From a virus (Duplodnaviria > Heunggongvirae > Uroviricota > Caudoviricetes): DNA of 4,496 nt. Location of the stretch: IMG/VR virus record IMGVR_UViG_2740892234_000016; one strand, written 5' to 3'. The first letter of the stretch is position 1. Every line of letters begins with the position of its first letter. A program made the position numbers and the translations under genes. A model generated the notes under the pieces. That model was not told the DNA's origin and did no database searches. It saw only the letters and a program-made list of their open reading frames with translations. Below are positions 2,856 to 3,477 of the stretch, one piece after another.

Positions 2856-3134
2856 ATGTTCAGAATCATTTTTCCTAACACCTGGTACGTCGACCACCAC
2901 GGCACTCCCTGCAAAATCCTGCGTTCTACCCACAACAAAGTTCACTACATCCGAAAAGGCAGAACATGTATCGCCAGCATGTTCCGCTTTAATCATGACT
3001 TTGAACCTGTGAATAAAGCTGATGCAGATCGGATAGCAGAAGAGATCGAAACGGCAGAACACATTAAGAAGTTACGTGACATGCGTTCAAAAAGCAGAGG
3101 TAACCATGGAATCATACAGCCTCACACTCGATGA
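2856..3134 (+). CDS. Hypothetical phage protein (92 aa), His/Cys-rich N-terminal half
   Basis: [95 protein letters not shown] has a strong ribosome-binding site (GAGGTG at 2845-2850, 5 nt before the ATG). It overlaps the xis start by 29 nt. It sits where Rac-type prophages carry small accessory genes next to xis. Confidence 0.55.
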   Translation: MFRIIFPNTWYVDHHGTPCKILRSTHNKVHYIRKGRTCIASMFRFNHDFEPVNKADADRIAEEIETAEHIKKLRDMRSKSRGNHGIIQPHTR

Positions 3135-3477
3135 GGCCTGTCAGTTTCTTAAGATATCCAGACCAACCGCCACCAACTGGATACGAACAGGCCGCCTACA
3201 GGCAACACGTAAAGATCCAACCAAGCCAAAATCTCCTTACCTCACAACACGGCAAGCCTGCATTGCGGCGCTTCAGTCTCCGCTGCATACTGTCCAGGTG
3301 AGCGCGGGTGATGGCATAACAGAGGAAAGAAAATGTCACTCTTCCGCAGAAATGAAATATGGTATGCCTCGTATTCGCTCCCGGGCGGGAAACGAATTAA
3401 GGAATCTCTTGGCACAAAGGACAAGCGGCAAGCTCAGGAGTTGCACGACAAGCGAAAAGCAGAACTCTGGCGAGTAG
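3106..3477 (+). CDS. xis: Excisionase (AlpA/Xis-type winged-helix DNA-binding protein); the 3' boundary is uncertain
   Basis: The N-terminus [35 protein letters not shown] is a typical AlpA/Xis helix-turn-helix, and the gene sits immediately 5' of the integrase. GAGG at 3097-3100 serves as ribosome-binding site for the ATG at 3106, which I prefer over the track start at 3076. The frame stays open to 3477, giving 123 aa, which is unusually long (see findings). Confidence 0.7.

Follow-up and report, generated by a model that had tools for sequence, protein, structure and literature searches.

The xis-int junction

The window, i.e., the whole stretch of 4,496 nucleotides that was analysed (IMG/VR record IMGVR_UViG_2740892234_000016), carries towards its 3' end an excisionase gene, xis, which extends out of frame into the integrase gene, int. 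The features of this region, all on the plus strand, are as follows:

2856-3134, plus strand: upstream DUF4222 gene, the 3' end of which overlaps the start of xis by 29 nt
3097-3100, plus strand: Shine-Dalgarno-like GAGG, read from the sequence, 5 nt before the xis ATG
3106-3477, plus strand: xis, P22-family excisionase (recombination directionality factor) of 123 aa, assigned from the open reading frame, PHROG 2907 and HTH_17
3106-3279, plus strand: winged helix-turn-helix DNA-binding domain (Xis residues 1-58), predicted from AlphaFold2, Foldseek and pairwise identity
3280-3332, plus strand: linker (Xis residues 59-75), predicted to be disordered from residue 63 and containing the int ribosome-binding region
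3333-3477, plus strand: dual-coding segment (Xis residues 76-123 and Int residues 1-48), with int in frame +2
3376-3414, plus strand: short helix predicted by AlphaFold2 (Xis residues 91-103, around a stretch of 16 residues)
3475-3477, plus strand: xis stop codon TAG, formed by Int Val48 (GTA) and the first base of Glu49
3333-4496, plus strand: int, tyrosine integrase of the IntD (DLP12/argU) type, 387 aa, Pfam Phage_integrase E=5e-47

The xis frame begins with the ATG at 3106 and stays open to the TAG at 3475-3477, giving 123 codons, and it shares 145 nt (3333-3477) with int, which is read in frame +2 relative to xis. Both the 123-codon frame and the 145-nt overlap with the integrase had been reported in an earlier, sequence-only reading of this DNA, and both were recovered when the coordinates were re-derived. 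The start methionine is the same in the xis homologues, which share the N-terminus M-E/D-x-Y/F-S-L, and the sequence AGAGGA is found at 3321-3326, 6 nt before the int ATG. The int stop codon is the end of the window, which therefore contains no att site.

Family, integrase and host element

The 3106-3477 frame is very probably a genuine, full-length xis gene of the P22 type, the tail of which appears from sequence comparison to be under selection. Residues 1-116 of the protein match positions 2-117 of the 117-position PHROG 2907 profile ("excisionase") with E=5.9e-46, and Pfam HTH_17 is found at residues 6-36 with 35.5 bits (cut-off 27). HTH_17 was the only family returned in a Pfam scan of the window Xis at E<=0.01, i.e., there was no match to the lambda Xis or Phage_AlpA families, and the NCBIfam model TIGR01764 ("excise") scored 27.7 bits, slightly below its cut-off of 28.8. 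A tblastn search of phage genomes with the window Xis gave identities of 100% for Escherichia phages ev243 and PhiR30_1, 76% for the annotated xis of P22, ST64T, SfV and relatives and about 40-47% for the counterparts in the HK446, mEpX2, SfX and APSE phages; these matches were almost always full-length.

The window int is 99.7% identical to E. coli K-12 intD at the nucleotide level. Over a stretch of 601 bp across the junction many complete E. coli chromosomes match the window at 100%, and the integrase gene in them bears the name intD. In the E2865 record, which is fully identical, int has tRNA-Arg and fimZ as neighbours; this location corresponds to the DLP12/argU site. The element had earlier been taken to be of the IntR type, and an IntR (Rac) int-xis module was accordingly considered; this assignment does not hold, as the integrase is not orthologous to Rac IntR and matches DLP12 intD in sequence, annotation and chromosomal site. 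The window thus carries an intact version of the DLP12 int-xis module, and this DLP12-like module is located downstream of exo, a TraR/DksA-like gene and the DUF4222 gene.

Other features of the window

The last non-overlapping xis codons (3256-3315), located upstream of the int ribosome-binding site, have a raised nucleotide identity across genera (0.77-0.80; the range is the same for 3286-3315), and synonymous differences are low (0.20) in xis codons 61-75, although the latter measure is biased in variable columns. A CII-activated promoter inside xis, similar to lambda PI, was considered as the cause of this conservation and found no support, as neither a sigma-70-like site nor a CII-type TTGC-N6-TTGC box within one mismatch was found in the 3256-3315 region. 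The conserved stretch may be a translation-initiation or regulatory element of int.

A run of 10 N bases is present at 1365-1374 and is flanked by two direct repeats, one of 260 nt with 96% identity (852-1111 and 1378-1637) and one of 60 nt with 98% identity (1305-1364 and 2196-2255). The 3' end of exo and the DUF1317 gene are each present twice around this run, and the start of a small "orf61"-like gene is found before the gap and again after the DNA adenine methyltransferase gene (1642-2199). This region looks like a scaffold join in which two alternative forms of the early-left region have been placed in a row; the two are found separately in E2865 and phage PhiR30_1.

Length and overlap among relatives

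In a survey of 113 database homologues of the window Xis the full-length proteins clustered at 115/116 aa (27 clusters) and 122/123 aa (23 clusters) across the Enterobacterales, and the shorter entries were mostly labelled partial. When one genome per species was scanned, 44 xis-int loci were obtained, of which 38 were parsed; they come from at least 15 enterobacterial genera, including Escherichia, Shigella, Enterobacter, Pseudocitrobacter, Siccibacter, Raoultella, Erwinia, Pantoea, Serratia, Edwardsiella, Xenorhabdus, Photorhabdus, Yersinia, Izhakiella, and Morganella. The xis gene had 114-123 codons in 37 of the 38 parsed loci, the sole exception being a degraded 96-codon xis without an intact int (L048). 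In all 31 loci with an intact int the overlap between the two genes was exactly 124 or 145 nt and always in frame +2; one of these loci (L039) was counted after its int start had been moved to the conserved MSIFRR.

It had been suggested that a long form shared by homologous xis genes, of 120 or more codons and with a conserved tail, would have to be ancestral. The homologues were found to have 114-123 codons and a conserved tail, and a length of 115-123 aa together with a deep out-of-frame overlap with int is therefore ancestral to the P22-type Xis family. The starting premise that an excisionase of this kind should be 60-75 aa long is true of the lambda-like, AlpA-like and TorI-like recombination directionality factors and does not extend to the P22 family. 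A short excisionase of the lambda/AlpA type was likewise discarded as an identity for the window protein, which has 123 aa in a family with a mode of 115-123 aa and has HTH_17 as its only Pfam match.

Two groups of database entries stood out in these surveys. Three loci (L008, L010, and L028) with the enterobacterial xis-int module, and with Xis proteins 63-87% identical to that of the window, carry the taxonomic labels Chryseobacterium sp., a Bacillota MAG and Micromonospora sp.; this odd taxonomy is probably the result of contamination or mis-binning of assemblies. Five entries of 206-207 aa (P0001 and P0003-P0006) carry both DUF4222 and HTH_17 and are apparent fusions of the upstream gene with xis. 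With a 29-nt overlap between the DUF4222 gene and xis, which are read in different frames, a 1-nt indel would be enough to join them, and the fusion entries, all of which form single-member clusters, may be sequencing errors.

Sequencing error, frameshifting and gene decay as unlikely explanations

The sequence-only reading listed three possible explanations for the long frame, i.e., a sequencing or assembly indel, a real extended Xis and programmed frameshifting, and did not choose between them; the second is retained here and the other two are not. If an indel had artificially lengthened a canonical xis of about 70 aa, a 1-nt shift should bring the normal end of the protein back into frame, and out-of-frame TGA (3299) and TAA (3317) codons would indeed give products of 64-70 aa; a scaffold gap is moreover present elsewhere in the window. 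The TAA at 3317-3319, which had been named as the possible end of a shorter xis, exists and lies in frame +1, but the TGA at 3299-3301 precedes it in the same frame, so that with an indel located before 3299 the protein would terminate at 3301 and not at 3319. On the other hand, the alignment to P22-class relatives and K-12 was without a single gap across 3090-3560, including the interval from 3200 to 3317 in which a 1-nt indel had been suspected, and the xis frame is free of homopolymers of 5 or more bases, at which a homopolymer error could have been expected. In 2,013 complete E. coli genome records the best match to the junction had an identity of at least 99%, several of the sampled records reaching 100%; the exact 123-aa protein is present on at least 1000 contigs and is named "excisionase" by some sources, and homologues in at least 15 genera have 114-123 aa with the single exception mentioned above. 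An indel is, in consequence, barely conceivable as an explanation. Programmed ribosomal frameshifting, by which a short Xis or a Xis-Int fusion would be made beside the long form, is suggested by the presence of three frames in play within 150 nt and by a heptamer, G_GGA_AAC, at 3387-3393 in the xis frame, from which a -1 slip would lead into the int frame and produce a Xis-Int fusion. A scan of the xis frame for X_XXY_YYZ however revealed no slippery heptamer in 3106-3317, and the heptamer at 3387, the only one in the frame, is absent from 25 of 26 non-redundant relatives and is probably fortuitous. Together with the apparent selection on the zero-frame tail (see below) this leaves frameshifting extremely improbable.

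A third alternative is that xis is a decayed pseudogene, as it is in E. coli K-12 and according to the RefSeq annotation. In all three records checked PGAP tags the identical sequence as "incomplete; missing C-terminus", and the DLP12 prophage of K-12 has kept only the part corresponding to window position 3238 onward and hence lacks the helix-turn-helix. The window frame is however complete from Met1 to the stop codon, matches the PHROG 2907 profile from end to end and is identical in phages that form plaques or have been induced (ev243 and PhiR30_1). The fragment annotated by PGAP consists of 21-22 codons of an uninterrupted frame, which argues for rules of overlap handling rather than a lesion in the gene. 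Decay of the window xis is therefore considered highly unlikely, and the frame is treated below as an intact gene of 123 codons.

Selection on the Xis tail

An open xis frame within int is in itself unremarkable and no proof of selection. When the Int codons were shuffled synonymously the xis frame stayed open to the observed stop codon in 38% of the shuffles of the window, and in the same test on each locus it was open in 10-60% of trials. The position of the stop codon is similarly uninformative in the 124-nt class, where it arises from Int Leu41-Lys/Arg42 with four of the six Leu codons; as it is for the most part imposed by the Int Leu-Lys/Arg dipeptide its conservation is weak evidence. 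Both observations fit a tail that is translated and functionally neutral, in which case only the first 60-75 or so residues would matter and the stop codon would be supplied by Int coding by chance. A neutral tail would also be in keeping with the fact that this part of the protein is mostly predicted to be disordered and is less conserved than the head, the mean pairwise identity among Xis homologues being 0.51-0.59 in the tail and 0.70-0.77 in the head.

The overlap does however provide a measure of selection. The wobble position of the Int codons is the second codon position of Xis, so that selection on the tail should lower the synonymous change in int. Synonymous divergence was measured as synonymous codon differences between pairs with the same residue, a pairwise statistic, in 26 non-redundant loci. 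It was 0.386 at int codons 2-40 against 0.54-0.62 (about 0.58) in all later regions, and none of 293 downstream blocks of 39 int codons was as low (minimum 0.475); a per-column Mann-Whitney test gave p=3e-7. The amino-acid divergence of Int over codons 2-40 was ordinary (0.24), and diversity dropped over the overlap at third positions, from about 0.55 to 0.38, with no drop at first and second positions. A shared recent history was considered as the cause of the dip in int and rejected, as the non-overlapping xis codons 2-60 upstream have a normal synonymous divergence of 0.54-0.58.

The two overlap classes serve as an internal control. In the 124-nt class the synonymous divergence of int was 0.31 at codons 2-20, 0.41 at codons 21-40 and 0.67 at codons 42-48, i.e., directly past the xis stop codon. 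In the 145-nt class the corresponding values were 0.32 and 0.33, followed by 0.48 at codons 42-48, which are still within xis, and 0.61 thereafter; the value of 0.48 is not significant alone, 23.5% of blocks being as low. Int Arg47 is encoded by xGA (CGA or AGA) in 12 of 12 non-redundant loci of the 145-nt class compared to 6 of 14 in the other class (Fisher p=0.0019), against a background of 25% for such codons, and the constant use of xGA fixes the invariant C-terminal Glu of Xis. In the same 12 of 12 loci codon 48 of Int is either GTA or ATA (xTA-G), by which the TAG is supplied. It is only this choice of xGA and xTA codons in the 145-nt class that is informative on the position of the stop codon. 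At the protein level L98, L102, and T106 are invariant among 30 Xis homologues.

As int has a lowered synonymous divergence within the overlap, which recovers right past the xis stop codon, these comparisons indicate that purifying selection acts on the Xis tail, though less strongly than on the head, and that the shared DNA is constrained in both frames. A neutral tail is difficult to reconcile with a constraint on synonymous sites that is specific to the overlap and relaxed past the stop codon, with the normal synonymous divergence of the flanking parts of xis and int, with the retention of the C-terminal Glu through Arg47 in every locus of the 145-nt class or with the three invariant tail residues, and it is regarded as improbable. 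The locus thereby offers a clean and quantifiable case of long out-of-frame dual coding that is apparently selected in both frames. The biological significance of the finding is small.

Annotation of the gene

The uninterrupted 123-codon xis has been reduced by RefSeq/PGAP to a pseudogene of 63-66 nt ("missing C-terminus") in three of three genome records checked that match the junction at 100%. The annotated fragments, which represent the same DNA as window positions 3106-3171, are as follows:

L001, 4107-4172: PGAP xis pseudogene fragment
L051, 307-372: PGAP xis pseudogene fragment
L052, 307-369: PGAP xis pseudogene fragment

The gene is left unannotated in the phage records PhiR30_1 and POCJ13, and a 116-aa copy of the P22 class is annotated in full. 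The truncated or absent annotation of xis looks like the result of how pipelines handle overlaps and not of biology. Surveys in which excision-competent prophages are scored by the presence of a recombination directionality factor gene would consequently undercount the P22/DLP12-type class.

The annotation of int is affected in strain EC11 (L003), where the annotated start is located 45 nt past the conserved ATG (MSLFRR; 1728 vs 1773), resulting in a protein of 372 instead of 387 aa. The apparent effect of this shift is a shorter overlap with xis. The upstream int ATG and the first residues that follow it are conserved in 30 of 30 aligned loci.

Structure and proposed mechanism

An AlphaFold2 model of the window Xis was built from 30 homologues. 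Residues 1-58 are predicted to form a winged helix-turn-helix that consists of a strand, two helices, a wing and a third helix (pLDDT 79-93, mostly above 90). The remainder is predicted to be disordered at residues 63-89 and 107-123 (pLDDT below 50 in both), and a short helix at residues 91-103 (pLDDT about 55-63) is the only secondary structure predicted in the tail. A stretch of 21 residues that had previously been assigned to a low-complexity tail turned out to comprise the wing and the third helix, i.e., it lies inside the folded part and is the best conserved part of the protein. The best Foldseek matches to residues 1-58 were the Xis of mycobacteriophage Pukovnik (4j2n, target TM-score 0.75), BldC, P2 Cox and MerR N-domains, and a profile search of PDB sequences with the window Xis likewise returned 4j2n (E=0.01). 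On the basis of the model residues 1-58 are thus assigned to the winged helix-turn-helix domains of the Xis/MerR type.

By analogy with the lambda and P22 Xis proteins, the winged-helix head would bind the P arm of attR cooperatively and bend it. The flexible tail, with its conserved helix at residues 91-103, may make protein-protein contacts, for which the likeliest partner would be the N-terminal arm-binding domain of the cognate Int and the alternative neighbouring Xis protomers. Such contacts could serve to direct the intasome to excision. A contact between the tail and Int is a possibility suggested by analogy, to which somewhat less than even weight is given.

The tail and the N-terminus of Int are encoded by the same DNA and are therefore inherited together whenever modules are exchanged. 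It is tempting to speculate that the dual-coding segment of 124-145 nt is a physically locked module in which the tail helix at residues 91-103 recognises the arm-binding domain of the cognate Int, although this proposal is tentative and on balance rather unlikely. If true, the specificity between Int and Xis would be inseparable by the recombination that shuffles lambdoid modules.

A mosaic is found at this locus in strain MB20 (L002), with a junction at the equivalent of window position ~3351, 18 nt inside int. Upstream of the junction the DNA is identical to the window except for one synonymous base, including the codons for Xis residues 1-81, and downstream of it the DNA is of the P22/thrW class at about 80% identity; the strain thus combines a DLP12-like Xis head with a tail and an int of the P22 class. 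The MB20 int is annotated as frameshifted. The mosaic is consistent with a locked module of Xis tail and Int and is at the same time a trivial consequence of the overlap itself.

Comparison with known systems

The xis gene of phage P22 is the closest well-known relative by family and arrangement, as both proteins belong to PHROG 2907 and in both cases xis is located upstream of int with an overlap in frame +2. P22 Xis (NP_059585) has 116 aa (351 nt) and overlaps int by 124 nt, compared to 123 aa and 145 nt in the window, where the xis stop codon is located 7 codons later than in P22. In the paper on its purification P22 Xis is reportedly described as a protein of 116 aa, as opposed to 72 aa for lambda Xis. 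Residues 1-75 are identical at 71 of 75 positions between P22 and the window, whereas the tail (residues 76-116) is identical at only 20 of 41; this is matched by the divergence of Int residues 1-41, which are identical at 32 of 41. The tails differ because the tail co-varies with a different Int (IntD/argU type in the window and P22/thrW type in P22), and this pattern of head and tail divergence would fit a tail that goes together with Int, although it also follows automatically from the overlap. P22 Xis has been purified and, as cited in a later article, binds att DNA cooperatively and bends it (Mattis et al., 2008, J Bacteriol 190:5781, cited in PMC7498355). By its likeness to the P22 protein the window Xis would be expected to act as a recombination directionality factor, i.e., to bind and bend attR and to stimulate excision.

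The xisD/intD region of the DLP12 prophage in E. coli K-12 has the same int as the window (99.7% nucleotide identity) and the same argU location as the window-identical E2865. The homology of K-12 to the window begins only at 3238, beside an exonuclease fragment, and the K-12 xis is therefore a pseudogene without its first ~44 codons, whereas the window xis is complete.

In phage lambda the overlap between xis and int is only about 20 nt, as opposed to 124-145 nt in the family of the window, and the tail of lambda Xis contacts the N-terminal domain of Int. The two excisionases are alike in having the same role, a location upstream of int and a winged-helix head followed by a flexible C-terminal tail, but lambda Xis is about 50 residues shorter than the window Xis. 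Lambda Xis promotes the binding of Int, forms a Xis/Int interface and bends att DNA (PMC7498355).

The Xis of mycobacteriophage Pukovnik (4j2n) is the best match to residues 1-58 of the window Xis by both solved structure and sequence. It has 54-58 residues, lacks an extended tail and is only 22% identical to the window Xis.

A long Xis has been known since the int-xis region of P22 was sequenced and the protein was purified. The xis-int pair of the window is thus an ordinary, already known gene arrangement, i.e., the standard excision module of lambdoid prophages of the P22/DLP12 type.
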